Below are positions 1 to 41,171 of a DNA stretch of 64,000 nucleotides, in pieces. Source of the stretch: an uncultured virus (IMG/VR IMGVR_UViG_3300024946_000002) (taxonomy: Duplodnaviria > Heunggongvirae > Uroviricota > Caudoviricetes); IMG/VR virus record IMGVR_UViG_3300024946_000002; one strand, written 5' to 3'. Both the position numbers and the translations under genes were made by a program. Positions within the stretch are counted from its first letter, which is position 1. The number at the start of each line of letters is the position of its first letter. The notes under the pieces are model-generated. The model made no database searches and had not been told where the DNA came from. It saw only the letters and a list, made by a program, of their open reading frames with translations.

Positions 1-379
1 AGTGACCGTCATAGATGAGCGTGTTACCAGCGCCACCGATAAAGCTAATAATGTCGTAAGCACCGTTAGTAGCCGCACCAGCAGTTAACGGCGGCGTTGC
101 ATTCGGGAACTTAAACGCAGCATTCCAAGCAAATACACGCGCAGATGTATCACCAGCTTTTAGCATAAACTTGTACATTGCCTTTTCTGTGATGCCAGTA
201 GGTGCGCCAAACGTAACGGTGATTGCATTAGTCAGTGTCACTTCTCGGATTTGGTCCGCACCATCGAATGTGTAGGTTGATGTAGTTGATACCGCGGCGG
301 TACCGTTATCAGGCACTTGAGTTGCTGTGAATGTGTTGGCTACGTTTTTCTTGACGGTATTGGCATCGAAGGCTTGAAC
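1..379. repeat. Direct repeat, copy 1 (copy 2 at 40109..40487)
   Basis: Hand alignment: 1-127 identical, 27 mismatches in 379 nt, all in the third-codon phase. Confidence 0.95.
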
Positions 380-637
380 AGTTGAGCCAATTGCAGTAGC
401 TCTTATAAAGCCCCAATCCACAGCTGCTAGATCACCCTTTTCAATCCATGCATCATTAGCTGCATTACGTTGTTTTAACTTGCCGCTTGTTGTATCTGCC
501 CACAACATATATGCAAAAGTATCAGCTGGTGCAGTAGCACCACTGTTTACCGTGCCTATCGCCGAAATCAAGTTATTCAGATCAGCCAGAAAGCTGGCCC
601 CATCCTGATCTGCTATGTTGTAATCATGTTGTGCCAT
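1..637 (-). CDS. Tail fibre adaptor of phage A (3' end beyond the window; absent from the ORF track)
   Basis: Hand translation from ATG 637: MAQHDYNIADQDGASFLADLNNLISAIGTVNSGATAP...VQAFDANTVKKNVANTF...; directly follows J; C-terminal part identical in protein to 40092..41171. Confidence 0.88.
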   Translation of the reverse strand, partial: MAQHDYNIADQDGASFLADLNNLISAIGTVNSGATAPADTFAYMLWADTTSGKLKQRNAANDAWIEKGDLAAVDWGFIRATAIGSTVQAFDANTVKKNVANTFTATQVPDNGTAAVSTTSTYTFDGADQIREVTLTNAITVTFGAPTGITEKAMYKFMLKAGDTSARVFAWNAAFKFPNATPPLTAGAATNGAYDIISFIGGAGNTLIYDGH

Positions 638-3600
638 CTAATAACCTTTCGCGTGAAAATCGAATGTGCGCGATATAACTGCACCGGCTGCATTCTTAAA
701 AATAATGGTGAAACCTTCAGTGTCTTTATTGGTGATCTCGTAGTAATCGCCTGTTTGCATGTTTTGCGCGGTAATACCCAAGGCAGGCGGCGCAATAAAT
801 GGGCGTGAATATGTCACCACATAGCCAGTACCAGATGTGCCGCTAGCTATGTCTTCACCAAACGCATCACGGTCTGGCATGTCCACGGTGACAGCTAGAG
901 ATTTAAGTAAGATATTGTGATTAGGGTCCTGCGTAGAGAAGTCCGCTTTAAACTCGTAAGCTCTGGCTGTCCAGTCGCCTACAAAGAACGGTTGCCACTC
1001 AGACCAATCAGGCGTAACTAATGGGTCGTCATCTGTTGTACGCACACTTAAAGCAACACCAACGTCATTGATGTTAGTGCCGGCAAATAGATTCCAACCA
1101 CTAATCAAGCCCCGTTTTGAAATAAAGTCGTTAGCGTCAAATGCACTTACTTCAAGTGCAGCAGTGAGCCTAGAGGTTTGAACGCTACCCAAATCAACAG
1201 ATTCATCAAAGTAATACTCACCACTGCTATTGACACCGCCTTCAGCTGACAAATAACCTAACGTACTTAACAGGCCCCAATCAGAGATCATGCTGGCAGG
1301 AGTGATTTTCAAACCACCGCGCTCAGTGTCATAGACCAGATTATTTTTAGTGCCTAAGAATGCCGGTGACTCAGTGACCGTTTCAGCAACGTTTAATGTA
1401 ATGAGGTTTGATACATTGCTTTTAATCGCAACAGCATTCACAGAAGCATTACCACTAGAATCAACCCACTTAGCCAAGTAAGAACCTGAAAGCAACGGCA
1501 CTGTGGTTGCATTTGAATTACCTGGTATTGATGAGCCAATATCCACCGCAGCAGACCATTCAGGTGTGATTAACTCAGGTGTGTAACGCAAACGAAGATA
1601 CCCGCCAACCAGCACATCTAAATCAGTTGAAGATGCCCAAGTGATATGCGCATAACCTGAAAGCGCAATCATTTGCAGAGATTGCACATCGTTTGGCGGC
1701 GTGGTCTTACCGTAAATTGTCACGTTCACGATTTGAGCTAATGACCTTCTGCCCAATGCGTTCTGTGCATAAAGCGTGAATGTGTAATCACCCTCAGCAA
1801 GCGGTTGAATATCCACAGTGGTATTACTGGTTGTGATGGTGACTGGATTTTGTCCAGGCTTAGAATAGATCAACACGTAATTGTTAATCCCAAGCTGGCT
1901 ATCCCATGAAACTGTGGCCTTTACACCAATCACGCCAACACCAACTAAATACAAAGATTCAGTCACGTTTAAATTAGTCGGCGTTGCTGGCTGGCCAGCA
2001 TTGACAGCACTAGTTTGCAATGGCTCTAAAACTAAGCCCTGCTCTACTGCAGCATACTTATCAGCACGGTAAGCTAGCGCAACAATCTCAAGCTGGGTTT
2101 TATCCACCTCAGCAATAGAAACCACACGCCAAATTTCAGGCACTAAATCACTAGCAGCCACTACCCACATTGAGTAATTTTGAGGGGCGCTAGTAAAGTC
2201 ACTCTCTACCTCAATCACGGTATGTGATCCAGCTGCATTAGTAATAGCTTTGGTTTCAATCTCACCATTCGCTAAGCAACATGAAATTTGGTAAGTCTTG
2301 CCTGCCTCAATAGTAATGGCAGCATCAATCGTCACTTGGCTGGTACTTGCAGCAACCAAACGACCACCCATGCGCTTACCTGCACGCACTGGATCTGTGG
2401 TTTGTATCAAACTACCTGATTGAATAAAGACAGAATCTAAGCCAGCTTTAAACGAAACCGTTTCAACCTCTTCCTGCTCGGTCGTCAGCAACATCTTACC
2501 CAAACGATGTGCTTGCCCACGTGAGGTGCACCCAGCTGCCACAATATCCGTTTGCACTACACCAAAGCGAGAGATTGCATCGTTGTCAGACACATACTCA
2601 ATTTTTGGTAAATAGTTGTCTAACGGGTCAATCCAAGTCACCAACACAACGGTATGGCGTACTTTTACACTTGAACCTGAGTAATTGAATACGCCATCCA
2701 CCACGTTAGCAGGGCTAAAAATCTGCGATACATCTTGTGGCGCATCTTGAGAAACATACACAGAGCCTGATGACCAATACACCATCGCCCTAAAGATTGA
2801 GGCAATGTTAGTAAGTACCTGGTACGCTTGTTCACGTGTTTGCAAATATAGGTTGCAGGTAAAGCGAGGCTCAGAGCCACCGTAGCCATCATCGACAAAC
2901 TCATCACAATATTTACCAATGGCGTACAAACCCCATTTATCAATCATGTCTTCGCCGATTAAATCACCGAGGCCATAACGATTATTGGTAACGATATCGT
3001 AAAAAATCCACGCAGGGTTATCTGTCCAGGCAACAGCAAACGTACCATCCCAAGTGCCGGTATATTCACGGGTCAATGGATTGTAGTTAGATGGTAGCTT
3101 AACTTTAATGCCTTTAATCTCATACCGACGCACTGGAATGCTATTGAACTGGCTAGAGTCAATCTGCAAAGCGACCAATGCCGTGTTTGGATAAGTTAGT
3201 TTTGCATCAATAATCTCAGTGTAGCTATCCCACATTGTGTTGTTCTGCAACGCAATCGAGGTGCTATCTGCTGTGATTCTACGCACACGCACATCCCACT
3301 CATCACCATCGGGCAATGGCACGTAATAAGCACGCTGGTATTTAGAGGTTGTTTTACCTGATATTACGTCTGTGTAAGCAGGTGCATACAGCTCAGCGTA
3401 ACTAATAGAAACAGATCCACCGTATTCAATTCCGGAAGCTACATAAGGGCCCAAGCCATTAAAAACATATTTGATAATACTTCCGCCAGTTTTAAGCACT
3501 CTAAATTCATATAAACCACTTGCCAACGTAAGCGAGAAGGTTTGTGAGCCAGTTGGAGAGGTAAATGAGCCAGGACTGTAATTACCGTTAACAACATCTG

Positions 3601-4309
3601 CCGATCCATTCCCTGAAAATGAATATCCTGTATGGGTAATCCAATCAAGAGCGCCAACTGCTCTATATTGGAGCACTAAAGATAAAGTTTGATTTCCACC
3701 AATGAGCTGACCAACCCAATTAACGGCAATGTTAAATTTATCAGATTCAACTGTATTACTTATAAATTCAGCACCATAAGTAAAGCTACCAGACTGGAAT
3801 ATTTTGCGTAATGGCTGCGGCACAAAACCACCACCATCAGTTTGAACATCGATTGCCACTTCAACCGAAGTGCCATTAATATCGCCGTTAGTTGTATCTT
3901 GCTGGCTTAATTGCGGAACAGACAACGTGACGCGCACAGCCGTATTGTTAGAATTGGTAATCGAGCGAACAACACTTGAAGCCTGCTTAATCTGTACACC
4001 CACTGGCCCCTCAGCTTCAGCTGCAGAAAAGCCTGGTATATATTCCTGAGACTGAGTGCCATTGCGTGTTGATACGGTCACACCAGTAAAGTTGAATGTA
4101 CCATCAGCGTTTTGTAGTGGCGTATCATCTAGGTAAATTGATTTTAATCCATCCACCAAGCCTTCGATTTCACCTTCACTGATTACATCAATGATGTTGG
4201 CGTACTGAGTAGATTTAAGCGAGTCAGGCGCTTCAACAGCAACACGACCACTGCCACCACCGCCGCCTTTACCACCACCGCCACCATGTCCTTTAATGAT
4301 TTCAGTCAT
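638..4309 (-). CDS. Tail tip / host specificity protein J-like
   Basis: 1223 aa; AWTDNPAWIFYD, EPRFTCN and GCTSRGQAHRLGK motifs of the lambda J family; position after L-K-I. Confidence 0.93.
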   Translation of the reverse strand: MTEIIKGHGGGGGKGGGGGSGRVAVEAPDSLKSTQYANIIDVISEGEIEGLVDGLKSIYLDDTPLQNADGTFNFTGVTVSTRNGTQSQEYIPGFSAAEAEGPVGVQIKQASSVVRSITNSNNTAVRVTLSVPQLSQQDTTNGDINGTSVEVAIDVQTDGGGFVPQPLRKIFQSGSFTYGAEFISNTVESDKFNIAVNWVGQLIGGNQTLSLVLQYRAVGALDWITHTGYSFSGNGSADVVNGNYSPGSFTSPTGSQTFSLTLASGLYEFRVLKTGGSIIKYVFNGLGPYVASGIEYGGSVSISYAELYAPAYTDVISGKTTSKYQRAYYVPLPDGDEWDVRVRRITADSTSIALQNNTMWDSYTEIIDAKLTYPNTALVALQIDSSQFNSIPVRRYEIKGIKVKLPSNYNPLTREYTGTWDGTFAVAWTDNPAWIFYDIVTNNRYGLGDLIGEDMIDKWGLYAIGKYCDEFVDDGYGGSEPRFTCNLYLQTREQAYQVLTNIASIFRAMVYWSSGSVYVSQDAPQDVSQIFSPANVVDGVFNYSGSSVKVRHTVVLVTWIDPLDNYLPKIEYVSDNDAISRFGVVQTDIVAAGCTSRGQAHRLGKMLLTTEQEEVETVSFKAGLDSVFIQSGSLIQTTDPVRAGKRMGGRLVAASTSQVTIDAAITIEAGKTYQISCCLANGEIETKAITNAAGSHTVIEVESDFTSAPQNYSMWVVAASDLVPEIWRVVSIAEVDKTQLEIVALAYRADKYAAVEQGLVLEPLQTSAVNAGQPATPTNLNVTESLYLVGVGVIGVKATVSWDSQLGINNYVLIYSKPGQNPVTITTSNTTVDIQPLAEGDYTFTLYAQNALGRRSLAQIVNVTIYGKTTPPNDVQSLQMIALSGYAHITWASSTDLDVLVGGYLRLRYTPELITPEWSAAVDIGSSIPGNSNATTVPLLSGSYLAKWVDSSGNASVNAVAIKSNVSNLITLNVAETVTESPAFLGTKNNLVYDTERGGLKITPASMISDWGLLSTLGYLSAEGGVNSSGEYYFDESVDLGSVQTSRLTAALEVSAFDANDFISKRGLISGWNLFAGTNINDVGVALSVRTTDDDPLVTPDWSEWQPFFVGDWTARAYEFKADFSTQDPNHNILLKSLAVTVDMPDRDAFGEDIASGTSGTGYVVTYSRPFIAPPALGITAQNMQTGDYYEITNKDTEGFTIIFKNAAGAVISRTFDFHAKGY

Positions 4310-4896
4310 AGTTGCGCCACGCTAAATCCAACAGAAACAACTTGAGAGCCAATGCCCATCTTGCCATAGCAAACAGGCACAGGATTACCTTGGCCAGTGA
4401 CATTCACCGCCCCTGAAAATGAAGTATTAGGAATATTTTCTGCACGCTCACCAGCATTCTTTTGTGCTTTTGGCGGTGCAAACAACATTTGAGAAACGCC
4501 ACCAAGCAATAAAGAGAAGCCAATCCCAGAAGCAATGCCAGACAGGCTAAATGAGAACGAGCTCATGGTGCTTAAGTAAGTAGTGCCAGGTAAGTAGAAA
4601 GATGCACCAATCAAGGCAGCACCCAGCAAAGCCTTACCTAAACCACCACTACCAGAAACAATAGGCACGATCTTGATTGTCTTAGATGTACCAACGTGCA
4701 ATTTTTCTTGGCTTGAGCGGTTATCACCACCAGCCAATACTTTGTAATAAGCCTGCCCATCCTGAATGATGGCATCTTTAAAATCTGCATAATTGGCACA
4801 GAAAGCACGAATCACCTCAGCTGGTGTTCTTGCATTCAGCTGATGCACCTTGCCGTATCTGTCGGCTAAAAACCCGTAAAGAATCACAGTTAACAT
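4306..4896 (-). CDS. Tail assembly protein I-like
   Basis: MLTVILYGFL start, GNPVPVCYG motif; start moved to ATG 4896 overlapping the K stop. Confidence 0.88.
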   Translation of the reverse strand: MLTVILYGFLADRYGKVHQLNARTPAEVIRAFCANYADFKDAIIQDGQAYYKVLAGGDNRSSQEKLHVGTSKTIKIVPIVSGSGGLGKALLGAALIGASFYLPGTTYLSTMSSFSFSLSGIASGIGFSLLLGGVSQMLFAPPKAQKNAGERAENIPNTSFSGAVNVTGQGNPVPVCYGKMGIGSQVVSVGFSVAQL

Positions 4897-5597
4897 AGGG
4901 ATTGATGCCTCAATATTTTTGAAGTGATTTTTCTCCAATAGCCGCCATACACATCACGGCTTGAGGCCTTGCCAAACACATGGTGCAAAATCACGTTATC
5001 AGCCACATACACAGCGCAATGGTTAGGCACTTGGCTAGCCACTTGCATCAAGATAATGTCGTGCAGCTGTGGACTATCCACCTCCACAAAGCCAGCTGCT
5101 TGGTAGTTGTCTAGGTAAAGGTTATCGCCTTTATTCCACCACTCCACATCACGTGGATAATCAATCATTTCAATACCAAGCTCGCGCTTGTAGTAATCAC
5201 GCCAGATGGCATAGCAATCAGTAATGCCATGCACAAAATGACGGCCCACATAAGGTGCCACATAGCCACTAGGCTCTGTATATGTCCAGGTATGCAACGG
5301 GTAATTCATAATCAAATATGGCAGCTGATGACGCTCAATCTCAATCAAATCAGCTTGGCTAGGCGCAGGGTTAACATTGATATGAGAATGCACCACGCAA
5401 ACAACCTTGTACTTGTCGCAAGCATCTGCATACTCAGCAGGATCAATCGCAAAATCACTATCACGAGGCGCAACGTTGGTGCATGGCAAGTACATTTGCT
5501 TACGGCGATGACTTACCACCAAGCCGCAAACTTCACGCCTTGGTGAGCTTGTCACGTGTGCTTTTACTGCCTCTAAAATATGGTCTGCAATCGTCAT
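4890..5597 (-). CDS. Tail tip protein K-like (JAB plus NlpC/P60)
   Basis: EVCG...HSH...PSQAD JAB motif; DCY and HCAVY NlpC/P60 motifs. Confidence 0.92.
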   Translation of the reverse strand: MTIADHILEAVKAHVTSSPRREVCGLVVSHRRKQMYLPCTNVAPRDSDFAIDPAEYADACDKYKVVCVVHSHINVNPAPSQADLIEIERHQLPYLIMNYPLHTWTYTEPSGYVAPYVGRHFVHGITDCYAIWRDYYKRELGIEMIDYPRDVEWWNKGDNLYLDNYQAAGFVEVDSPQLHDIILMQVASQVPNHCAVYVADNVILHHVFGKASSRDVYGGYWRKITSKILRHQSLC

Positions 5598-5599
5598 GG

Positions 5600-6292
5600 T
5601 TATCTAATCAACTTAATCGCAGGGAAACCGCCATAAGGCAGTGGATTGTTACCAAAACGTAAACGGCATGAGCGCAATCTTTTACCGCAATCATCAAGCG
5701 ACAAATCAGCAGTAGGGTTATCGCTTTTATCAGCCACAGCACCACCAGCATAACTACACTCAGATGAGCGATAAGCCCAGGTGCAAACGTTTTGAATACA
5801 TTGGCGTCGTGGCAACATAACGCCTTCAAGATCTAAAGCACTGGCAAGCTCCCACTCCACCATTACTTTGTTTTCATTGGCTTTGCGGTCGATGAAATAA
5901 ACCTCTTCATCCAATGCAGCATTAGGGTCTGCACTAGGGTTTACACCGCCCTCGAAGTTCACCGCATCAAGGTATTTTAAGAAAGTGCGACGGCGTATAA
6001 ATTTAACGCGTACCAGATCATCATTCTCACGAGACAAACTACCAATCAAACCATCCACGTTAGCAACACGTAACGTTGGTCTAGCCTGCTTACCATTGCC
6101 ATTTCGCTCAAAGCCCTCAGCATCAATCGGCAGCCTAGTGTAAGTAATGCCATTAAACACAACATCACCTAAAAGGACATTCACACCGTTATGAAAATAA
6201 TAATGCTCATCAATGCCAATAGTATTAAGATCAAGCTCAAACAGCTCAATCAAGTTACCGCCATCAGATTTTTGAATGTCTGAAGTAATCAT
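5600..6292 (-). CDS. Minor tail protein L-like
   Basis: LPRRQ...CTWAYRSSECSY...DDCGKRLRSCRLRFG...YGGFP Cys pattern. Confidence 0.92.
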   Translation of the reverse strand: MITSDIQKSDGGNLIELFELDLNTIGIDEHYYFHNGVNVLLGDVVFNGITYTRLPIDAEGFERNGNGKQARPTLRVANVDGLIGSLSRENDDLVRVKFIRRRTFLKYLDAVNFEGGVNPSADPNAALDEEVYFIDRKANENKVMVEWELASALDLEGVMLPRRQCIQNVCTWAYRSSECSYAGGAVADKSDNPTADLSLDDCGKRLRSCRLRFGNNPLPYGGFPAIKLIR

Positions 6293-6618
6293 TCAAACAC
6301 CCTTCTAAATTTTGTGGTGATACTAGAGGCATTCGCTGAAATGACCGGTTCCGACCAATCATCACAAACAACTCTAATTTCAGAAAAACCAAATGGCGTC
6401 CAAGTGAAAGAGGTCACACCAGCCTTTGAAGTTAAGAATGCATCAATTGCTTGAATCTCAGCCAAAGTACCTTTAAAAGTTAAATTCCAGTCAGTCTTAA
6501 TGGTGTTAATGCCATCACCGACACGTTGCTCGTAGCCATCCCCAAATGAGACAGTAAGCACCCTTGGTTTTTTATTGATGACAGGGTTTGATGTTGGTAG
6601 CCAAGTAAATTCACTCAT
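6289..6618 (-). CDS. Minor tail protein M-like (distal tail)
   Basis: FGDGYEQR and SFTWTP motifs; follows the tape measure gene. Confidence 0.9.
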   Translation of the reverse strand: MSEFTWLPTSNPVINKKPRVLTVSFGDGYEQRVGDGINTIKTDWNLTFKGTLAEIQAIDAFLTSKAGVTSFTWTPFGFSEIRVVCDDWSEPVISANASSITTKFRRVFE

Positions 6619-8717
6619 GCCAACAGCCCGCCTTGCCTTTTTTCACTAATCAATACAGAGCGCACAGCACCAGCTATCTGCCTGCCTAGATCATTGCCTT
6701 TTTCGTTATTACCTTGCACATTGCTGCCTGTAGCATCAACGCTTACACTGACGCTTATTTGGTTGCTACTTCCACCAAATCCATTTGGGATGATCGTTCC
6801 TGGTGCATCCGGAATGAACAACTCTGGGCCACGCTCACCAACCACAGAAATTTTATTTAATGGAGGGCGGCCACCATCAGCAAAAAAGCCACCAAAGAAA
6901 TCTTTAGCCACACCACCAATACCGCTACCAATGCCACTAAACGCCTCAGATAAAGGCTCTGTTACTAACTTACGCGTAGCAATTCTTATCAGGTCTTTTT
7001 CTATACCCAACAATACATCGCCTAAACTTTTATAATTAACAATGGCATCTTCAGCAGCTGAACTAAAAACAAAACCAAGCTCACGACCAGAGTCGCTAGC
7101 TTTATTTACTTTTGTTTTAAGCGTTTCTACTTCTTGATAAGTTTCACGCAACGCCTCAATCTCTTCAGCACTTAATCCTAAGCCCTGCTCTGCTAAATCA
7201 TTTAATGTTCTTTGTAGTGAAATCTCTACATTCCTAGCTGCAATTTTTTCCTGCTGAGCTTGCTGCGACAGTCCTTGAATTGAAAGCTGGAATTGAAGCT
7301 CTTCGGTTTCTTGATTAATGGTAGCCAGCATTTTTTCATAAGCATCAATAGCTAGTTGTTGCTGCTGCTGAGCCTTAGTCTCTATATCAAACTGCTCGTT
7401 CTGTAACTCAATTTCAGTTTCAATCGCGCGGATATCACCTTCGTTAAAAAGCTTTTCATCTTCAATCAACTGTAATTTCTGATCAGCCCTAGCTTTTTCC
7501 AACTCCATCAATGAAGCGGTTTCTTGCTGAAGGTTAAGCAACTGGACAATTGCCTCATCGCCAATACCCTGCTGCTTCAATCTAGCAATCGTTTTTGCAT
7601 CCTCAAGAGGAACGCCTTGCGCTATCAACCGATTTTCTTGTTGGATGAGAGCGATCTGATCTTGCAAGGTTTGGATTGGGGATTTTGACGTTGATGCAGG
7701 GTCAAGCACTTCGGTTGCTGTTTCAGTAGCATTGCCACTTGTATTCTTTTTAGGATTGTCTTTTAAATAACGCGCTTCTAATTCAGCGGTAATTTCAGTC
7801 AACTCTTTTCTAAAACCAATAATATTCATACGCATGTTTTTGCGTATGACAGCATTTGCACCTTCTGACTCTGCTTTTGATAAAGCCTGCTCTCGTTCAG
7901 AAATAACAGTCAATAATTGAAGTTGTCTACTTTCTAAGTTGGCTTGTTCAGTGCCTACAGCAGCAATTTTTACTGTATTACCAATAGCAGCTAATGTAGC
8001 GACAAACAAACCAGCTTTTTTATTGTTTTCTATAAAGTTATCTGTAATCTCATTGAGAGATGGCAGCAACTTACTAGCAATTTCAACACTTGTATTGCCT
8101 GCTTTAGCTTTAAGCAAATCTAACTTGTCGTTAAACTCTCCTGCATTCTTAGTGTTTTCATCTGTAACGCCTGATAACTCGCGTCCAGCCTTAATTTGCT
8201 CACGTAAAGCATCACCACCCTGAAGCAATGAAGGTAATAATTCCTCGTAGCTTTTACCAAGGAATTTATTAGCCAATGCATTACGTGTTTGTACATCCTC
8301 AATACTGGATATCACGTCTGCAAGCTGAATATAGGCTTCTAATGGATCTTTAGCTGTAATGCCTAGTTTTTTAGCGGCCTCGCCATTTTGTGCAAGAAAT
8401 ACTGATAGCTTATTAACACCCTTACCTAATGACTCTAAAGAAGTGTCTGAAAGCAAAGCAACTTGACGAAGCCCAGCTAAATTTGATGCAGCAACACCAG
8501 TGCGATCACTTAGGTCGCCTAGCATGTCTAAGGTATCAATACCGCCTTTAGTAAACGCTGTGAAAGTTGCAGCACCAAGGAATGGCATTAATCTACCAAT
8601 GACACCATTCAGCGTAACAGCAGCACCCTCAACCTTACCTAAGCCAGTTTGAACACTGTTAAATGCAGCCTTGGTACTATCAACGGCACTGATGATTATT
8701 TTTGATTCTTCAGCCAT
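6615..8717 (-). CDS. Tail tape measure protein
   Basis: 700 aa helical; C-terminal FADGG...VGERGPELFIP; gene order. Confidence 0.9.
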   Translation of the reverse strand: MAEESKIIISAVDSTKAAFNSVQTGLGKVEGAAVTLNGVIGRLMPFLGAATFTAFTKGGIDTLDMLGDLSDRTGVAASNLAGLRQVALLSDTSLESLGKGVNKLSVFLAQNGEAAKKLGITAKDPLEAYIQLADVISSIEDVQTRNALANKFLGKSYEELLPSLLQGGDALREQIKAGRELSGVTDENTKNAGEFNDKLDLLKAKAGNTSVEIASKLLPSLNEITDNFIENNKKAGLFVATLAAIGNTVKIAAVGTEQANLESRQLQLLTVISEREQALSKAESEGANAVIRKNMRMNIIGFRKELTEITAELEARYLKDNPKKNTSGNATETATEVLDPASTSKSPIQTLQDQIALIQQENRLIAQGVPLEDAKTIARLKQQGIGDEAIVQLLNLQQETASLMELEKARADQKLQLIEDEKLFNEGDIRAIETEIELQNEQFDIETKAQQQQQLAIDAYEKMLATINQETEELQFQLSIQGLSQQAQQEKIAARNVEISLQRTLNDLAEQGLGLSAEEIEALRETYQEVETLKTKVNKASDSGRELGFVFSSAAEDAIVNYKSLGDVLLGIEKDLIRIATRKLVTEPLSEAFSGIGSGIGGVAKDFFGGFFADGGRPPLNKISVVGERGPELFIPDAPGTIIPNGFGGSSNQISVSVSVDATGSNVQGNNEKGNDLGRQIAGAVRSVLISEKRQGGLLA

Positions 8718-9032
8718 TGCCTAAAACCTCTAAAGCGGCGTGTTGCATACAAATGATGTTGGATAACATTTCTTTTTGATTTGAAACCTCCATCATCTTC
8801 ATCACCGCTCCTAATGCTAATTTATCAATTGATTTGTACTGACCTTGCGGGGTAATTTTCCAATCGTCGCTACAGGCACAAAAAACCTGCATAGCCTCTA
8901 GGTTCATTTCCCACAACTCAAAGTAATCTTGAGTCTGACTATCTGCCACCAAGCCAAATGCTTTTAAAGCATCTACCTGATCTTGATTTTCATCTTGGCC
9001 GCCATTTGCCCACCATCTGGCGGCGGCCTCTA
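8710..9032 (-). CDS. Tail chaperone gpT-like part, reached by -1 frameshift
   Basis: The -1 frame after A AAA AAC reads LEAAARWWANGG...LVADSQTQDYFELWEMN open into ORF 8710..8952. Confidence 0.8.
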
Positions 9033-9039
9033 GTTTTTT
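8997..9039 (-). other. Programmed -1 frameshift signal
   Basis: Heptamer AAAAAAC at 9033-9039 followed by GGCCGCC...GGCGGCC hairpin. Confidence 0.82.
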
Positions 9040-33021: not shown

Positions 33022-33161
33022 GCGACTTCACCATAACCAAACGCGCTGATGTAGATATGTCAGAAACGCACAAAAAGGTAAATCATGAATCTAGCAGTAT
33101 CGAAAATGAAAAAGTTCTAGTGTCCTAAGAAAATAAACCAAAGATAAAAGTTACTTTATAA

Positions 33162-33449
33162 ATGTTCAAGTACGTCACCATCTCTAAGTTTTGCAATGAA
33201 ACTGGCTACACAGAGGATGCTGTTCGTACTAAAATCCGTGATGGTGTCTGGCTTGAAAATAAAGTGTGGGTAAAAGCGCAAGACAATAGAATACTAATGA
33301 GTGTTGAAGGATTTAACGAATGGGCAGAGATGGGAATGGTATCCGCAAGGCGTCAGAAACGAGCTACGAACTCGCCTTTACCTATCAAGGCGTCAGGTGC
33401 CGCGAAAGAATCAAGCTCAAGCCCTCCCCCGCTAATGATCGCCGCGTAA
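33162..33449 (+). CDS. Excisionase-like protein
   Basis: KYVTISKFCNETGYTEDAVRTKIRDGVW; overlaps the integrase start. Confidence 0.78.
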   Translation: MFKYVTISKFCNETGYTEDAVRTKIRDGVWLENKVWVKAQDNRILMSVEGFNEWAEMGMVSARRQKRATNSPLPIKASGAAKESSSSPPPLMIAA

Positions 33450-34492: not shown

Positions 34493-34685
34493 GTGGTAAA
34501 TCAACCCCAAACCACCCCAAATACTGGCATTAAAATGACAGCTTTTAACAAGACATAAAACACTTAACTTACTGATTTTTATAACTTTTTACTACTAAAA
34601 AAATGGTGGAGCAGGCGGGAATCGAACCTACGTAAAGCCACGCCTAGCTTAGCTAAATTAAAAATACTGGCAAAAAGCTGTCATT
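34464..34685. repeat. Arm-type site repeats AAAAGCTGTCA around the att core
   Basis: Copies near 34465 and 34477, inverted near 34536, and near 34673 on the far side of the core. Confidence 0.75.
34604..34633 (-). other. att core: 3' fragment of tmRNA (or tRNA)
   Basis: Minus strand ACGTAGGTTCGATTCCCGCCTGCTCCACCA; T-loop and CCA intact, T-stem 5' arm mismatched, no upstream gene body. Confidence 0.8.
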
Positions 34686-34923
34686 CACGTATTTTTTCAT
34701 CTAAGCTAAATTTCAGGAATCAAACCACCGTCCTTTGTTTTATTTTGATTTTCTGTCAAAAATATATCTATAACCAATAATTGCTAAAAAATAATTAAAA
34801 AGAACCTCTCGGAAAAAAGATTTTTATTATTTTCTACTAACCCCAAAGCCATAGCTGGCAATGTGTTGAAATTTGGCAAGTGGGATTTGCACTTTTAAAC
34901 AAAAATATTTATCGAAAAACAGC

Positions 34924-34952
34924 TTGACCTACCACTACATAATGATTTTAAT
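34924..34952 (+). promoter_or_regulatory. Sigma70-type promoter of the accessory locus
   Basis: TTGACC-N17-TTTAAT. Confidence 0.62.
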
Positions 34953-34958
34953 TGATAC

Positions 34959-35140
34959 TAATCGCAATATGTAGTGGCTGATTGTGATTGCGGCCCAATC
35001 TTTTCTGAGGAGATTGAGCCGCTGGGAGGTGGGAATTTACCCCCGAGGAATCGCTACTATAATCTGAACAGATTGTAGAAGCAACGGATAAATTTCCATC
35101 TCCTTTAGTTACTATTTTTTAAAACTAATGGAGAATTACC
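34959..35140 (+). ncRNA. Structured leader RNA / candidate cis-regulatory switch
   Basis: Three hairpins with G-U pairs favouring the plus strand; an alternative stem covers the SD of the next ORF. Confidence 0.6.
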
Positions 35141-35284
35141 ATGGCTAATAAGTCACAAAAAAATGAACATACCAGTTCTAAAGTAGCATCAAAAGCATCT
35201 GCAATATTAAGAGATCCTAAATCAACAGCAGCTGAAAAATCTGTAGCTGGGTCTGCTTTAACTCAAGCAAAAAACAAGAAGTAA
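35141..35284 (+). CDS. 47-aa basic Ser/Ala/Lys-rich protein (below ORF-track cutoff)
   Basis: MANKSQKNEHTSSKVASKASAILRDPKSTAAEKSVAGSALTQAKNKK; GGAGA SD. Confidence 0.8.
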   Translation: MANKSQKNEHTSSKVASKASAILRDPKSTAAEKSVAGSALTQAKNKK

Positions 35285-35289
35285 TCACA

Positions 35290-35316
35290 AGGGGCTTCGG
35301 CCCCTATTAATTTTTC
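35290..35316 (+). terminator. UUCG hairpin, probable terminator
   Basis: AGGGGC-TTCG-GCCCCT then an AT/T-rich tract. Confidence 0.62.
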
Positions 35317-35331
35317 TTAAGGGAAACAGCT

Positions 35332-35775
35332 ATGAATTTAGACTTTGACGCTACATATGAAATACAGGACGCATCTCAAAGATATTTAGATATAAAAAAT
35401 ATCTTTAAAAAATTTGCAGATAGTCTGGTATCACAAACATCAAACAATACGGGCTTTGTTGGATTAACAATTGAACCAAAACTTAACGAAGATCATATCT
35501 TAGCTAGCATTGGTCAAATTAAAATCAGATGTCAATTAGTCACTTATTTATCGATAGATAATCGACTTGAAGGATTAATTGTATTTTTAAGAGAACATCT
35601 TGTCGATAGAGATGAGTTAATAAAATTAGGCTCAATTAATTTCAACCAGAATGGAGATCTTGATTGCAATCTAAAAAATAGCACAAGAGTTTGCAACCTT
35701 TATAGCCAAGCTGAATTTGTTCTTATGCATTACTTCAAAATAGCATTATCTATTGATGTAGATAAGCTAATCTAA
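35332..35775 (+). CDS. Hypothetical AT-rich accessory protein
   Basis: 147-aa ORF with AAGGGA RBS, convergent on the lysis genes. Confidence 0.7.
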   Translation: MNLDFDATYEIQDASQRYLDIKNIFKKFADSLVSQTSNNTGFVGLTIEPKLNEDHILASIGQIKIRCQLVTYLSIDNRLEGLIVFLREHLVDRDELIKLGSINFNQNGDLDCNLKNSTRVCNLYSQAEFVLMHYFKIALSIDVDKLI

Positions 35776-35843
35776 AACAAAGTTTTAAACTCTTCAGCAT
35801 TGTAAAATTTAACAAGGCTGGAGAGCTTTATTAAATATCAAAA

Positions 35844-36419
35844 TTATTCACCGCACTGGTGATTACTACAAACACCATCAATCCAACCACGTGCCAGATT
35901 AAAGTCTGCAGTTGTTACTGCGCACGCCTCTTCGATAACTGATCTTTCAGTATCGGCTCGGTCAAGCTCTCGCCTGCAGCTGGCAAGTCTTTCGGTATCG
36001 CTGGCAATTTCGCCTGTGGTGTTGCGACTACCTGCTTCGAGCAACATGCGGTCAGCATAAGAAGCAATCCTAAAATCAGCATTGGTTTTGTTAGCATATA
36101 AACTACTCACTTTCTTTTGAAGTTGTGCCCTATCAATATCTAAGGCAGCAATGATTGATTTGTACTTATTAATTTCAAGCCCCACAGCCTTTTTCGTATT
36201 AGCCTCTATGATCTGATTCTTTTGCGCCTGCAATTCAGCTTCTTGTTTTACTAGGCCGATATACTCTTTGAAATCCTGCTTTTCATTCTCATAGGCGCTT
36301 TTGTAATGCCAGATTGCCAGCAGCATGAGTACCACCAGCACAATGCGCCAGTGCGTGATTAGTAGCTTGGATAGAGATTTAAACTTACCTAGTAACCATA
36401 AACCCAATTTAATCATCAT
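35844..36419 (-). CDS. Rz-like inner-membrane spanin
   Basis: N-terminal TM then coiled coil; follows the endolysin. Confidence 0.75.
   Translation of the reverse strand: MMIKLGLWLLGKFKSLSKLLITHWRIVLVVLMLLAIWHYKSAYENEKQDFKEYIGLVKQEAELQAQKNQIIEANTKKAVGLEINKYKSIIAALDIDRAQLQKKVSSLYANKTNADFRIASYADRMLLEAGSRNTTGEIASDTERLASCRRELDRADTERSVIEEACAVTTADFNLARGWIDGVCSNHQCGE
35915..36097 (-). CDS. Rz1-like outer-membrane lipoprotein embedded in the Rz-like gene
   Basis: LILGLLLMLTAC lipobox and Pro-rich mature part in an alternative frame. Confidence 0.65.
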   Translation of the reverse strand: MLTKPMLILGLLLMLTACCSKQVVATPQAKLPAIPKDLPAAGESLTEPILKDQLSKRRAQ

Positions 36420-36884
36420 TTAGCGCACCATGTTTTCTGCAATACGTTTAGCCCAGCCACGGCTATAAGTTGGCCATGTTGGCAAGCTAGTCATAAACAA
36501 AAGCCTTGTACCGTTATATTTCATAGATAGAAGATGACCATCTATTTTCATGGCCATAGAAAGCGTTACGTTACCAACCACTCCATCAGCTACAACATCA
36601 AGCGCGCGCTGCAACCATAAAATCGCCTGCTTAACACCTGAGTTTACTGCTGCATCAAACACATCAAATCGCACAGCTTCAGGTAAATCATCACAACGGC
36701 ATCTATCCCAATAATCACGTTTATAGATTAGCTTTGCACCATCCAGTGTTAAATTTTTAATATCAACCGCTGGATATGCACGCTTACTAATTCCGTATTT
36801 AGTTTCACCACCAGGATCTCTCGGATCGTTAACATAACCACCTTCATGAACAATCAGCTTTTTAAACGCATCTTCAAAATTCAT
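36420..36884 (-). CDS. Endolysin, glycoside hydrolase family 108
   Basis: HEGGYVNDPRDPGGETKYGI; LQRAL..VADG peptidoglycan-binding segment. Confidence 0.93.
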   Translation of the reverse strand: MNFEDAFKKLIVHEGGYVNDPRDPGGETKYGISKRAYPAVDIKNLTLDGAKLIYKRDYWDRCRCDDLPEAVRFDVFDAAVNSGVKQAILWLQRALDVVADGVVGNVTLSMAMKIDGHLLSMKYNGTRLLFMTSLPTWPTYSRGWAKRIAENMVR

Positions 36885-37111
36885 TACGCCCTACTTTCTG
36901 AATAAACCTTAAATATAAAACCCTGCAATACTGATATAGGCGCTGTAACTGCTGCGATAATTAAAGCTACATCAGCACCTGTTTTATCAGTAGTGGTTGC
37001 AAATACTGCCGCCCAATTAAATGCTTCCCAAGTCATCCAAACGGTTACATAAAGAACAAATGAGCGAACCGAAATGAAGTTCTTTGCATCAGCCCATTTG
37101 ATGAAATTCAT
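36884..37111 (-). CDS. Putative holin
   Basis: 75 aa, two TM segments, directly upstream of the endolysin. Confidence 0.6.
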   Translation of the reverse strand: MNFIKWADAKNFISVRSFVLYVTVWMTWEAFNWAAVFATTTDKTGADVALIIAAVTAPISVLQGFIFKVYSESRA

Positions 37112-37392
37112 TTTGTACCTCTAGGCACATATAGATCAGCTCTAACTCTCTCTATTTTGTTGTCAACCTGATCAACTTTAGTATCAACTTTTTCTATACT
37201 TGTTCTTAATGATTGCATCTCAGTCTTGATCACCTCTACTGAGATATACATGGCGAACCCACCTGCAACCACCGACATAATCGCTGTTTCCACCAACCGA
37301 ACCGACACAGGCGATTGGATCTTAGGATTTTTCGCAATTAGCCCCAAAAATGGTATGTAGCTAAGTATTGAATGGCAGCTTTGATCGGGCAT
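37108..37392 (-). CDS. Membrane protein (holin/antiholin-like)
   Basis: One TM segment plus coiled coil within the lysis cassette. Confidence 0.5.
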   Translation of the reverse strand: MPDQSCHSILSYIPFLGLIAKNPKIQSPVSVRLVETAIMSVVAGGFAMYISVEVIKTEMQSLRTSIEKVDTKVDQVDNKIERVRADLYVPRGTK

Positions 37393-37412
37393 GTCTAAAA
37401 CCTTTCTTATTT

Positions 37413-37856
37413 TTATTTAATTTTTGTTTTCTCAAAATTCAGCGATAACAAATGCTGAGGTGTAATACGATGGTGATACTTACTATCAAACGGCCTTTGA
37501 CCACCTGCTGCTAGAATGCTGGCCACCAACTCAGCACACGACCATTTATCATCTTCCTGCCAGTTTCGCTTTAGCCCGATACCAATCACACCGAGCCAAT
37601 CGTATTGCTTACCAAGCTGGCCAATCGCAAACGCCTCTGATACATCCAGCTCTTTCACTGGGATATGCATCATCACGGCCTTAGATGACTTTGCTAACCT
37701 ATCGTTAACCTTACCAAGTACAACGCCCTCCCCTGCAATTGCACCGATAAGCAAATTTTCATCAAGCACCAAGTCAACATGGCTATACTCTGACCAGGTA
37801 ATAAACCTGATCAACCATGAGCCAAGATGCCGCCTACGGCTGAATAAGAGCTTCAT
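37413..37856 (-). CDS. Permuted papain-like NlpC/P60 (YiiX/YebB-type) protein
   Basis: YSHV before GKQYD...WSCAELV (His precedes Cys). Confidence 0.78.
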   Translation of the reverse strand: MKLLFSRRRHLGSWLIRFITWSEYSHVDLVLDENLLIGAIAGEGVVLGKVNDRLAKSSKAVMMHIPVKELDVSEAFAIGQLGKQYDWLGVIGIGLKRNWQEDDKWSCAELVASILAAGGQRPFDSKYHHRITPQHLLSLNFEKTKIK

Positions 37857-38445
37857 CTACATACTCCTGTGGGAATCCATCAAGTACGTCATAGGCTTCA
37901 AGTTGTCCAATGGTCATGGTTTGGATGGCTGCACGCTTGGCTTCTGCTACACCAAAAATCACTTGTTCACGCATAACCTGTGCCGCAAATAGCTCACCAG
38001 CCAGTGCTTGTGTCATAGTCACAAAAGAACCGTCTAGCGTTTTCCATTTCAGATTTGCAGGGATGTTTGCGCCCATGATGACCAATGCAATTTGTTGTTG
38101 CTTTGAATCGGTGTCTGAGTGAAACCACTTATCCTGAACCAAGCAGCCGCCATTAGTTTTAACGTAATCACGATGGCTTTTAATCTGTGTCCACAAACGC
38201 TCACGGATAGCGGTTAAGTCCATTGGTGTATTGATATATGTCACTGTTGCGCCGTTGTACTCTTCGGTCACATTGTAGAAATTACGGTTAGCAGGTTGAT
38301 TGGTTGCTACTACCAACTCAAGGCCAAATGATTGCAATATCTCAGGAGATTTATCACCTAATGCGGTAAATGGATAAGAGTTGCCATCAATCGTAAAGTC
38401 CATGCCATCGTTAATATATTGGTTGCTTGCTTCTCTGTAATACAT
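37834..38445 (-). CDS. Tail fibre assembly-associated protein (DUF4376-like)
   Basis: WTQIKSHRD...GG...WFHSD...WKTLDGSFVTMT. Confidence 0.7.
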   Translation of the reverse strand: MYYREASNQYINDGMDFTIDGNSYPFTALGDKSPEILQSFGLELVVATNQPANRNFYNVTEEYNGATVTYINTPMDLTAIRERLWTQIKSHRDYVKTNGGCLVQDKWFHSDTDSKQQQIALVIMGANIPANLKWKTLDGSFVTMTQALAGELFAAQVMREQVIFGVAEAKRAAIQTMTIGQLEAYDVLDGFPQEYVDEALIQP

Positions 38446-38447
38446 GG

Positions 38448-40091
38448 TTAATTCCCTTTTGCGTTCTGATGTTTAAAGGCTGACTTGCTCTCAGGGCTTA
38501 ATATTGTTGCCGTCCAAGTGTTAGTGCCTGATGAGTTGTAACTAGATGATGATGTGCGTAGCTTGAAGCCGTTGGATAGCTTGTCCGCATGCGTACCCCA
38601 TGTGACTGCGTTACCATTAATAGTGAGAGTTTCAGGTGTGCCGTTGCACCAGATGAATGGACCAATAGCATTTGCATTACCTGTGAAGCTTCCTGATTCA
38701 ATCACATCGGTGCTTGTTAGGTTTGCCGTGCATAGTGCTTTGAAGCCAGCAGGTGGTGTGTAGGTGAATGAACGTTGACCGAAGTTGAGGGAGGCACTCG
38801 GACTACCGTTGCCACGCCCTATTGCTGGAAAGTATGCACCGGACGTGAGTCCTGTAAATGCTGTACCTTGGCTGACGTTATTTTTGTAGAATGTTAATGT
38901 ACCGTTGTCAGCGTCAAAGGCCACGCCAATAACATCGCTGGTTGTGTATGCTGCACCATAGGCTATTGATGTACCATTTGTGTACTTTGTCCCATCTAAC
39001 CCATAGTATGCCCAACCATTAGCATCGGACCCAGGATAATTCTGTGTAGTTGCCAAAGAGTTTGAAATCCCAATCATCGGATTAGTGGCTGTAACAGTTG
39101 CTTCCCAATACCATTTGCCTGTTAGCATCCCTATGGTAGCTCGCACTGCTCCGTTAGTAGCACCTTGAGCATAATTCAAATTTGCGTTTGATAGTGTAAT
39201 ATTGGTTCCAACACCAGCATCTAACGGGTTCAACACCGCATAATTACCACTAGGCTGAACCGCACTAGCACTACCATTCCCTGCTGGAACATCCAGCATC
39301 CAGCAATCATTCACGCCAGCAGAGCGTGTGAAGTTTGTGAGCGTCCAGTGATTGTTGTTACCTGACTTGTCGTAACCTAGCGTTGTTGTGCTGGTGCCGT
39401 CTTTGAAGTCTAGGTAAAAGCCGTTTGTGCCGTAAGTGCCTGTATATTTCTTAGCAACCCATTGGCCAGTGCTTGTGTTGATTTCACCGAAGGATGAAGT
39501 CGTATTTTCAGTGACGTTTATTTCTGCTAAATACCCATCAAGCAATCCTGATGCAGTTCCAGCCTCTCTTCCGATATTAAATGTATTAAAAAGGCTTAGA
39601 GTTGTCACTAAATTTTGACTTGGGTCTATCGAACTACTAAAGGTTGTTTCTAAAATCCCGTTAATTTTTACCGTAAATCTTGAGGATGCATTAGCGCTGG
39701 GCGTGTTAACTGTGCATTCAATGTGATACAAAGCAGAAGGGTCTCTAAACACCCTCGAAGTGACCTTCCTTGCTTGATAGGTTGTAAAATAATCGAAAAA
39801 ATCTAACTGATCTGCACTATTAAATTCTATTCCAAAAGCTGTTGTAGAGCCGTTAGATGCTCCAAATATTACTTGTCGAACCCCCAGCGCGCCTCGTTTT
39901 ACCCAAAAGGAAAAGGTTGCAATTTGCCCGCCGAAATTCGAGCTAAGTGTACGTGTAAGATACTGGCTACTAGCCGCACTAAACCGCAAGCTACGCTCAA
40001 TTACGTAACCATTCGCACTACCTCCACCTGACATAAAAAAGCTAGGTGTATAAAGGCTGTAAAGCTTAGAGATAAAGCTTCTAATCATCAC
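38448..40091 (-). CDS. Receptor-binding/tail protein with laminin-G-like and SPRY-like domains
   Basis: SLRF, TFSFWVKR, GTNGFYLDF, GKWYWEA, DVIGVAFDADNG, NFGQRSF. Confidence 0.75.
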   Translation of the reverse strand: MMIRSFISKLYSLYTPSFFMSGGGSANGYVIERSLRFSAASSQYLTRTLSSNFGGQIATFSFWVKRGALGVRQVIFGASNGSTTAFGIEFNSADQLDFFDYFTTYQARKVTSRVFRDPSALYHIECTVNTPSANASSRFTVKINGILETTFSSSIDPSQNLVTTLSLFNTFNIGREAGTASGLLDGYLAEINVTENTTSSFGEINTSTGQWVAKKYTGTYGTNGFYLDFKDGTSTTTLGYDKSGNNNHWTLTNFTRSAGVNDCWMLDVPAGNGSASAVQPSGNYAVLNPLDAGVGTNITLSNANLNYAQGATNGAVRATIGMLTGKWYWEATVTATNPMIGISNSLATTQNYPGSDANGWAYYGLDGTKYTNGTSIAYGAAYTTSDVIGVAFDADNGTLTFYKNNVSQGTAFTGLTSGAYFPAIGRGNGSPSASLNFGQRSFTYTPPAGFKALCTANLTSTDVIESGSFTGNANAIGPFIWCNGTPETLTINGNAVTWGTHADKLSNGFKLRTSSSSYNSSGTNTWTATILSPESKSAFKHQNAKGN

Positions 40092-41171
40092 TTACCCCAC
40101 ATTCGCTAAGTGACCGTCATAGATGAGCGTGTTACCAGCGCCACCGATAAAGCTAATAATGTCGTAAGCACCGTTAGTAGCCGCACCAGCAGTTAACGGC
40201 GGCGTTGCATTCGGGAACTTAAACGCAGCATTCCACGCAAATACTCGCGCAGAAGTATCACCAGCTTTCAGCATGAACTTATACATAGCCTTTTCTGTGA
40301 TACCTGTAGGCGCGCCAAATGTAACGGTGATTGCATTGGTTAGCGTCACCTCACGGATTTGGTCTGCGCCATCGAACGTATAGGTTGAGGTAGTTGATAC
40401 CGCAGCTGTGCCGTTATCAGGCACTTGAGTAGCAGTGAAAGTGTTGGCTACGTTTTTCTTGACGGTATTGGCATCGAAGGCTTGAACGTCTGTGCCGATG
40501 GTTAAACCTAAATTAGCTCTAGCAGTTACCACATTGGCTAAGTCAGATAAGTTATTTGCTTTCAATAATGCAGATACAACCGCAGCTTCTGCCGCGAGAA
40601 CATCAAGCCCTGTTTGTATGCGGTCTAATCCAGTTTGAATTTTGTCTGCTTCTGCATCATTTGCATAACCTAAAGCCTCTATTGCAGATAAAGCCGCAGC
40701 CGCAGCAGAAGATGCCGCCTGAAGTTTGTATGTATTAATAGTGTCTAGGTAATTCTCTGAGGTAACAGAGCTTGATGCAGGCACGACCACGGCACGATCT
40801 GCAATCTCTTTGACTTGCTGAATAAGCATCGTGATTTTATCAAGTGCATTTTCAAACACTTCAGGATAAAAGCCACCTTGATTTTGAATGTCAGTTTCTT
40901 GGGTGTACTCTACGTTGCCTAATATCGTTAGCTTTTCACCTGTAGCTAATGTTGAATAGCTAATGCTACCGCCTGGGCTTGCGTTCTGATCGAGGTTAAG
41001 CGTAACGGTGTAGTCACTATCAAGAACCAGTACGGTTTCAATCTCGTCAACATCTGTGTAGATGACCTTTACATCAGCTTTTGCGAAGGTTTTAAATGTG
41101 AAAGGGAATGATGTAGTAACATCGTTTCCATCGAATGGGCCAGCTTTCCTAGCTTCAGAACTGATAGTCAT
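40092..41171 (-). CDS. Podovirus tail fibre adaptor of phage B
   Basis: GNDVTTSFPFTF and ENALDKITM podoviral anchor; C-terminus shared with 1..637. Confidence 0.85.
   Translation of the reverse strand: MTISSEARKAGPFDGNDVTTSFPFTFKTFAKADVKVIYTDVDEIETVLVLDSDYTVTLNLDQNASPGGSISYSTLATGEKLTILGNVEYTQETDIQNQGGFYPEVFENALDKITMLIQQVKEIADRAVVVPASSSVTSENYLDTINTYKLQAASSAAAAALSAIEALGYANDAEADKIQTGLDRIQTGLDVLAAEAAVVSALLKANNLSDLANVVTARANLGLTIGTDVQAFDANTVKKNVANTFTATQVPDNGTAAVSTTSTYTFDGADQIREVTLTNAITVTFGAPTGITEKAMYKFMLKAGDTSARVFAWNAAFKFPNATPPLTAGAATNGAYDIISFIGGAGNTLIYDGHLANVG
40109..40487. repeat. Direct repeat, copy 2 of 1..379
   Basis: Hand alignment, about 93 percent identical. Confidence 0.95.

Follow-up and report, generated by a model that had tools for sequence, protein, structure and literature searches.

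It is already established that the fibre modules of phages are mosaic and anchor-based. The adaptor of SP6 and K1-5 underlies a modular receptor-binding system, and the tailspikes of P22, 9NA and Det7 are a case of one receptor-recognition protein carried on tails of different morphotype. In lambda, stf-tfa lies behind J, and attP-int lies beyond the b region. Haggard-Ljungquist is said to have described in 1992 how tail fibre genes pass horizontally between phages that are not related. For Klebsiella phages, anchor-branch receptor-binding proteins (RBPs) are presented as an anchor-based modular system (PMC8262889, PMC6872550). Here we analyse a stretch of 64,000 nt from an uncultured virus of the Caudoviricetes (IMG/VR record IMGVR_UViG_3300024946_000002; ‘the window’), in which two fibre adaptors with dissimilar N-terminal parts end in nearly the same C-terminal domain. 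The domain may serve as a mounting point for a separately encoded LamG/SPRY protein, and the window itself is probably an assembly product of two separate temperate phages.

Open reading frame (ORF) listing with PHROG and Pfam scans resolves the window into two phage genomes and finds no host genes in it. About 1–34.6 kb is a lambda-like temperate siphovirus (phage A), recognized in PHROG by J, a tape measure, terminase and portal, cI/cro/cII and int-xis beside attP. The remainder, 35.8–64 kb, reads in these scans as a podovirus with T7-like virion genes (phage B); phage B and its closed relative G001 (described below) carry phrog_332, 394, 376, 308 and 418 [connector, tubular proteins A and B, internal virion proteins] and have no tape measure.

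The shared adaptor domain and its distribution

The adaptor of phage A (P0001; 2–637, minus strand) consists of a 66-residue N-terminal anchor, a linker and the shared C-terminal domain, and the gene directly upstream of it encodes the central tail fibre J (638–4309, minus strand; phrog_31, E 4.5e-280). The adaptor of phage B (P0002; 40092–41171, minus strand) is directly preceded by the gene for a 2470-residue polyvalent internal virion protein (41225–48637, minus strand; phrog_9880), and it has a putative N-terminal tail anchor (residues ∼1–130), followed in AF2 models by predicted long helices and the shared C-terminal β-sandwich (∼245–359). As a preliminary description of the window had read from the DNA, the two adaptors differ in their N-termini, between which protein alignment detects no significant similarity, and converge at the C-terminus, where 128 of 130 residues are identical; the common stretch begins just ahead of VQAFDANTVKKN. 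Adaptor A is cut five codons ahead of its stop by the end of the contig at the window edge. Read across the 127-nt overlap described below it comprises 217 residues, with 94–95% identity to the 217-residue adaptors of two relatives of phage A (L005 and L006).

At the DNA level, window 1–127 is an exact duplicate of 40109–40235; 127 nt is the longest exact prefix, and the mismatch that ends it stands at 128. The domain-coding tract that follows in adaptor A (128–379, minus strand) corresponds to 40236–40487 in copy B. Recomparison returned exactly the 27 nucleotide differences counted earlier, all of them within 128–332 and each at a third codon position; 333–379 is again identical, and from 380 on similarity is gone. 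All 27 differences are synonymous and there is no replacement change over about 68 codons, far beyond chance, which shows strong purifying selection on the shared domain. The adaptor DNA is an older, synonymously diverged tract beside a perfectly identical one, and could thus record recombination tracts between co-occurring phages at nucleotide resolution (127+ identical nt beside 13% synonymous divergence).

The N-terminus of adaptor B may be of a known anchor type. Residues 12–130 match the N-terminus of the tailspikes Dpo31/Dpo36 in a PDB sequence search (E 4.7e-20), and residues 1–130 match the N-termini of 14 PHROG families (tail fibre/spike and unannotated); a Pfam scan of this part gave no match at E ≤ 0.01, Phage_T7_tail (PF03906) included. 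Foldseek pairs it weakly with the N-terminus of T7 gp17 (E 0.17, in a part of the model with low confidence), and an adaptor homologue (P0007) carries PF03906.

Residues 226–359 of adaptor B served as the domain query against 5.8 billion proteins. The domain, which has no Pfam family, is carried by 71 protein clusters of 203–471 aa; together with the two window adaptors these make the 73 proteins on which the following counts are based. The match ends within two residues of the C-terminus in 61 of the 73 and within 37 residues in 72; P0036, with 124 residues after the domain, is the sole protein with more than 40. Single linkage of blastp matches sorts the N-terminal parts into about 28 groups unrelated to one another; a few of the parts bear precomputed Pfam labels, among them T7 tail fibre N-terminus, carbohydrate-binding module and Mtd_N. 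Three longer proteins (632–664 aa) also end in the domain. These comparisons support the view that the C-terminal domain can be transferred as a unit and has been fused to N-terminal anchors of many unrelated kinds. Judged by upstream genes, carriers include J-type siphoviruses (window A and L102), a siphovirus with a tape measure nearby (L110) and T7-like podoviruses with tubular protein B or the giant virion protein (window B, L104 and L107); the tail context of L011/L012, L013, L100, L101, L103, L106, L108 and L109 is unclassified. The earlier proposal that the domain sits on unrelated tail architectures therefore stands. Named carriers come from Methylotenera and Rhodocyclaceae records of metagenome-assembled genomes (MAGs) and from Magnetospirillum, and serve only as hints of host range; one named homologue points to a possible host among the Methylophilaceae.

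The anchor of phage A has a distribution of its own. Among the 80 viral loci kept of 537 relatives found with P0001 as query, three match over the full length, one over residues 1–200 at 60%, eight in the C-terminal domain only and 68 in the N-terminal anchor only, so that this anchor is itself a widespread module with other distal parts. A scan of genome contigs with P0001 gave three distant N-terminal matches in MAG contigs and none in a host genome.

The genes downstream of distant domain carriers also support the link to the LamG/SPRY protein: a homologue is the next gene in eight of ten such loci with downstream DNA, including one weak case (L106, 26% identity) and one partial case (L104, only a 42-aa match to the central motif). 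Among close relatives the first 25 residues, the central linker and the C-terminal 85 residues of this RBP are conserved and its LamG and SPRY domains vary; the L013 protein has no N-terminal peptide.

Modelled alone (AF2, mean pLDDT 91), the domain is an eight-strand β-sandwich. VIA-align against 48,161 chains returned seven matches at Z 6.0–7.6, with all others at ≤ 3.4: the C-terminus of the Solidus gp83 tailspike (Z 7.6), the C-terminal knob of the Pa223 capsid spike gp52 (Z 7.0), a baseplate chain of Klebsiella phage KP1 (Z 6.9), CBA120 TSP4 residues 78–180 in two crystal forms (Z 6.2 and 6.0), StcE (Z 6.2) and CpaA (Z 6.0). The superposition on TSP4 78–180 covers 97 residues (Z 6.2, r.m.s.d. 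3.4), and Foldseek concurs on Pa223 (E 8.8e-5). Fold searches with the whole adaptor were dominated by its helical middle part and uninformative. TSP4 78–180 is XD1, for which T4 gp9, CpaA and StcE are given as structural neighbours in the part of PMC8825819 that treats it; in T4 and CBA120, according to the same part, docking is by XD2 and XD3, and XD1 is a spacer (PMC8825819). An excerpt of the Pa223 preprint describes the knob as a TNF fold on a trimeric spike. In this comparison with the T4 gp10-like XD domains, the fold match is to XD1 and to neither XD2 nor XD3. The predicted fold would place the domain among phage fibre and baseplate modules and is compatible with either a mounting point or a binding knob.

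In the first of these two roles the adaptor, presumably a trimer, would be fixed to the tail by its anchor, and the conserved β-sandwich would mount the separately translated LamG/SPRY protein, whose variable LamG and SPRY domains would bind the host; recombination inside the conserved domain could then move the fibre cassette between tail types. This docking role, to which we give an even chance, is favoured because conservation of the domain far exceeds that of the proteins flanking it, because phages A and B show no replacement change in it, because its association with the LamG/SPRY gene persists across deeply diverged loci, and because the LamG/SPRY protein has no recognizable anchor of its own. 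Alternatively, the domain is the distal receptor-binding knob of a short fibre and the LamG/SPRY protein a separate or accessory fibre whose link to it is no more than genetic. The fold matches to the C-terminal knobs of Pa223 gp52 (Z 7.0) and Solidus gp83 (Z 7.6), the occurrence of this fold in StcE and CpaA domains, the C-terminal position of the domain in nearly all proteins and the two loci that have no LamG/SPRY gene would all suit such a knob. We nevertheless regard it as rather unlikely: the domain is 75–97% identical across many anchors, and so far more conserved than its partner RBPs (∼59–100%), its named carriers span Methylotenera, Rhodocyclaceae and Magnetospirillum records, and neither this conservation nor the lack of replacement changes between A and B is what a receptor-binding tip, usually the most variable part, would show; a protein–protein interface fits better, and no tail anchor is recognizable in the LamG/SPRY protein itself.

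Several observations weigh against the docking role itself. The best fold matches are terminal knobs (the Pa223 spike and Solidus gp83) and XD1, which the TSP4 authors take for a spacer rather than a docking site; L107 and L109, two of the ten distant loci, have no LamG/SPRY gene after the domain; and a search for longer fused forms found no protein in which the domain is joined to the LamG/SPRY protein, which is weak evidence. A 1:1 complex prediction of the full LamG/SPRY protein with the C-terminal domain, run with no controls, scored 0.00 and gave no answer, and was counted neither for nor against. We put forward only tentatively, as falling a little short of even, the wider proposal that the β-sandwich is a general plug for LamG/SPRY RBPs on about 28 virion anchors, with a cassette that hops between tail types by a single crossover inside the domain and is accompanied in some lineages by lysis genes, attP and integrase.

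Assembly of the window and the two phages

The window shows a single LamG/SPRY gene, a single DUF4376 gene and one clear lysis cassette (35844–37392). The preliminary description had noted this correctly, and had concluded that both phages use one shared copy or form a composite element. A closed record of 43,908 nt, G001, is 99.95% identical to window 37432–64000. Its ends overlap by 127 nt (position 1 corresponds to window 37558, position 43908 to window 37432), the same length as the duplicate at the window edge. De Bruijn assemblers commonly go up to k = 127, and when a contig loops back to the vertex by which it entered, its ends have exactly k bases in common. Window 1–127 is most readily understood as such a k = 127 assembly-graph overlap, at which the path of phage A would re-enter a shared repeat. 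The switch of the path from B to A likely falls in the gene for a conserved 147-aa protein (37413–37856), since the 99.95% match to G001 stops at 37432. G001 carries the same adaptor, RBP and chaperone as the window, with another holin and another endolysin; its attP is its own, and its 393-aa integrase and the window enzyme are unrelated. The window LamG/SPRY protein is 100% identical to that of G001, and this copy therefore stems from phage B.

The DNA to the left of position 1 was inferred through relatives (IMG/VR loci). Three loci, L005, L006 and L007, are 96–97% identical to window 3–10640 (L007 over its 8.6 kb) and are thus close relatives of phage A. Downstream of the 217-aa adaptor each has its own 544–547-aa LamG/SPRY protein, 211-aa DUF4376 protein and 147-aa protein. 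In L005 and L006 two small proteins follow the fibre module, and L006 has the full set: RBP (547 aa), chaperone, 147-aa, 122-aa and 100-aa proteins, M23 endolysin and spanin. The siphovirus lineage therefore owns receptor-binding and lysis genes, placed after its fibre genes, and what relatives of phage A carry beyond position 1 is their own copy of the fibre module (LamG/SPRY protein, chaperone and 147-aa protein) rather than an unrelated receptor module. Megablast of 1–8000 and 35300–42000 against cultured phage records found no match.

Four freshwater-sediment metagenome runs (X1–X4) hold 54–94% of the sampled words of 34400–41300. Their Logan contigs were placed on window 33000–42000, X2–X4 being interpreted only where 33–42 kb was covered. 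In X1 the A-specific contigs have depths of 24.3x and 21.3x, and the contig over the window-type holin and endolysin (36333–37441) is like them at 22.5x; the B-specific 23,251-nt contig stands at 49.7x and the shared 147-aa region at 78.4x. Across the X1 spanin gene, G001-type (non-window) letters make up 50–59x of 72–87x, with the window letters at A-like depth. From loose ends at 36416 and 37399 it is clear that this run contains the G001-type cassette as well, and a further loose end at 40487 runs into an A-type N-terminus. X2, X3 and X4 contain the G001-type cassette as a joint from 36416 to 37399, with 1132 nt replacing 982, and in X4 phage B with its own module forms a single 43,811-nt contig (20.6x) at an A-specific depth of 0–3x. 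By these depths the window lysis cassette travels with A and the other cassette with B, so that the lysis genes are not common to both phages as had been supposed. In all four runs A- and B-specific contigs are about twofold or more apart in depth and the ratio varies between runs; A and B thus vary independently in abundance.

Contigs of X1 at A-like depth (23–26x) match the window around, not within, 37935–38164, 38759–39240 and 39499–40015, and the same segments differ likewise among L005, L009 and the window. From these sequences X1 appears to hold a second variant of the module with other chaperone N-terminal, SPRY and LamG segments. Between the two lineages the RBPs are unlike in their LamG and SPRY parts, which lends no support to the suggestion that A and B share a host range.

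The window is probably a metagenome contig that walks through a repeat common to two separate temperate phages, and we hold this explanation with good confidence as a whole, that is, for the assembly walk, the separateness of the phages and the exchanged module together. The circle of phage A would close from window position 1 back into the fibre module, giving the order J, adaptor, LamG/SPRY protein, chaperone, 147-aa protein, lysis genes, cargo, attP in a tRNA 3′ end, int and xis, with the lysis cassette at 35.8–37.4 kb as its own. Phage B would be the 43.9-kb podovirus of G001, which combines structural genes of T7 type and a fibre module of its own with another lysis cassette and an integrase not related to that of A; common to both would be a horizontally exchanged late-end module. 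The depth evidence has weaknesses that count against this explanation. It comes from Logan contigs of related runs, not from the window’s own reads; Logan depths are coarse, with one figure per contig summed over strains; between 37432 and 37935, X1 and the window disagree at 12 positions, so that X1 may not be the source sample; and the RBP pieces of X1 stand at 54–70x, which is not a clean sum of A and B, more than two variants being present.

Tandem prophages in one chromosome could also yield such a contig if near-identical modules, one of them A’s copy to the left of the window, had been collapsed by the assembler. Phages A and B have the same orientation with no host genes between them, a repeat of that kind would likewise end a contig with a k-mer overlap, and relatives show that siphovirus and podovirus lineages can share int and att. 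Two linked prophages are nevertheless improbable in the face of A and B depths that are about twofold or more apart in four runs with a varying ratio, and of a window-type cassette at A depth beside a G001-type cassette at B depth. Moreover, B is 99.95% identical to a closed record with another lysis cassette and another integrase, and the order int, tRNA fragment, cargo and lysis genes (34.5–37.4 kb) resembles the unintegrated attP region of A. That one physical receptor-binding and lysis module serves both phages, or that a composite element makes two particle types, would explain why only one copy is visible and why 1–34.6 kb has no clear lysis genes. This we consider scarcely credible: relatives of A carry their own copy, B is found without A, equipped with a module and lysis genes of its own, A and B are unequal in depth, and the window begins exactly at the 127-nt repeat boundary. 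The appearance of one module serving two phages is an assembly artefact, and it is a caution that genes ‘shared’ by neighbouring phages in metagenome contigs can be collapsed repeats.

Genes of the module and reach of the exchange

The putative RBP (38448–40091, minus strand; phrog_19943, phrog_27411) has a SPRY domain (PF00622, E 1.2e-21; 77.4 bits against a cut-off of 26.3). Laminin_G_3 (PF13385) is above the cut-off in the L006 homologue only (55.6 bits against 27.6), and the window copy has no LamG match at E ≤ 0.01 in Pfam. At 40088–40094 the stop of adaptor B directly precedes, in frame, the GTG/ATG start of this gene. Read-through of the in-frame TAA from adaptor B into the RBP was rejected, the genes not being in the same frame in L013, L099 and L108; because the frame relation is lost in these distant loci, translational coupling seems the likelier arrangement. 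The DUF4376 protein (37834–38445, minus strand; PF14301, E 5.5e-15, 56.2 bits against a cut-off of 25; phrog_2837, tail protein) is a putative fibre assembly chaperone, an activity suggested by gene position only. The 147-aa protein (minus strand; phrog_1128, no Pfam match) is 95–100% identical in A-type and C-type relatives where compared. Its PHROG label (enoyl-CoA hydratase-like) looks unreliable, and visual inspection suggests His and Cys motifs like those of small papain-like peptidases.

In the lysis cassette the endolysin (36420–36884, minus strand) is identified by its GH108 profile (PF05838, E 5.4e-28) and has a PG_binding_3 domain; the holin and spanin are identified by sequence features and position only. 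The holin candidate (37108–37392, minus strand; 94 aa), whose depth tracks A, has hydrophobic stretches followed by a charged tail and no family match in PHROG or Pfam. The spanin-like protein (35844–36419, minus strand) has an N-terminal hydrophobic stretch and a coiled coil; it shares 88–89% identity with its counterparts in G001 and G002, from which its C-terminal end departs. Within an otherwise conserved cassette, the enzyme in the endolysin position is of three unrelated kinds: GH108 in the window, an M23 peptidase in G001/G002 (L006 14040–14504) and an amidase in L011 (13792–14385). The statement that phage A has no lysis genes in 1–34.6 kb is right for that interval, which offers only a weak match to a PHROG holin family (E 8.6e-10; 82-aa ORF at 28929–29177, plus strand, in the early region), and wrong in its implication for the phage, as the cassette at 35.8–37.4 kb tracks A. 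The 82-aa ORF, far from any endolysin, is not regarded as the lysis holin.

In one pair of relatives the exchanged block reaches further. G002, the record that contains L006, is a prophage starting at a tRNA-Val (51–127), and its 393-aa integrase (L088; 332–1513) is 97% identical to that of the podovirus G001; other regions of the shared int/att block are L002 (G001) 1874–3344 and L006 15085–15170. A 13-nt core at the tRNA-Val 3′ end occurs at the left end of G002, at its right end after the spanin and in attP of G001, and the arms flanking it match as expected for attL, attR and attP. Between G001 and G002 the small lysis proteins, endolysin and spanin are 92–99% identical and the RBPs only 69%. 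On this sequence evidence the siphovirus G002 and the podovirus G001 share lysis genes, attP and integrase, and the pair in the window does not. A common integration site of window A and B (as G001) was rejected, their integrases being unrelated; the earlier suggestion of shared integration is thus right for G002 and G001 (attP core, integrase 97% identical in protein) and fails for the phages about which it was made. The G002/G001 pair is a documented case of a block from fibre genes to integrase exchanged between a siphovirus and a podovirus.

The putative attP core of phage A is a tRNA gene 3′ fragment (34604–34640, minus strand) downstream of int, as in lambda; its 25-nt core is present once in the window, and ARAGORN finds no whole tRNA there. 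Between it and the spanin gene, 34650–35830 is AT-rich (36% GC) with a small lysine-rich ORF (∼35143–35285) and a 147-aa ORF (35332–35775) that has no family, both of them probably part of the cargo of phage A. The region is absent from all five relative records searched (G002–G006). The minus strand of phage A further carries tail assembly genes, tape measure, head genes, portal, terminases (17216–19773), primase, cII and cro. The plus strand carries cI (24718–25524), xis (33162–33449; PHROG/Pfam) and the tyrosine integrase (33320–34492) that is unrelated to the G001 enzyme. Just upstream of xis/int on the same strand, 30049–33021 encodes a 606-aa DNA methyltransferase and a PAPS-reductase-like (possibly DndC-like) protein, and the relative G002 does not have this region.

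Phage B has a head–tail connector (57745–59418) and tubular tail proteins (53654–54322 and 51369–53651); its virion genes also include a capsid protein and internal virion proteins. The 2470-aa virion protein contains an ART-PolyVal ADP-ribosyltransferase domain (residues 907–1058, E 2e-18) and an LPD22 domain, and in L104 a 2971-aa relative of it precedes the adaptor.

Comparison with described systems

By gene position and order, phage A resembles the side tail fibre locus of lambda: behind J come a fibre gene and a downstream assembly protein, in the series fibre, cargo, attP, int and xis. Unlike in lambda, its lysis genes follow the fibre genes and do not precede the terminase genes. The likeness to P22, 9NA and Det7 is in related host-recognition modules on podovirus and siphovirus tails, attached through different N-terminal parts and shuffled by mosaic recombination. 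In contrast to those phages, the junction here is inside a separate adaptor protein, and in the G001/G002 pair the block runs through the lysis genes to attP and integrase.

The branched tailspike complexes of CBA120 and G7C provide a second comparison, in that small β-sandwich domains in fibre-proximal proteins organize multi-protein adsorption complexes, as the part of PMC8825819 concerned with them sets out. The shared domain matches the same neighbours that the authors list there for XD1 of TSP4 (T4 gp9, CpaA and StcE; PMC8825819). It has no sequence similarity to CBA120 TSP4, and it is terminal and not internal; docking in CBA120 and T4, as given in that part of PMC8825819, is by XD2/XD3 with XD1 as a spacer.

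A conserved, unannotated domain, putatively a connector, is together with its anchors and LamG/SPRY partner a possible marker for host-recognition cassettes in uncultured freshwater phages, and the domain might be used as a plug-in point where fibres are exchanged between tail types. The features held in common with the anchor and adaptor systems are a small protein with a putative N-terminal anchor of the T7 gp17 or tailspike type, a distal part to which a separately encoded RBP would attach, and swappable specificity modules. The differences are that the distal domain here is an uncharacterized β-sandwich that belongs to no Pfam family, that the putative partner is a LamG/SPRY protein and not a depolymerase tailspike, and that the same distal domain is also found on a 66-aa anchor behind J of lambda-like siphoviruses. 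By analogy, the arrangement would work like the anchor and adaptor RBP systems of Klebsiella phages, SP6-like phages, G7C and CBA120, and what appears new in it is the undescribed connector domain and its LamG/SPRY partner.

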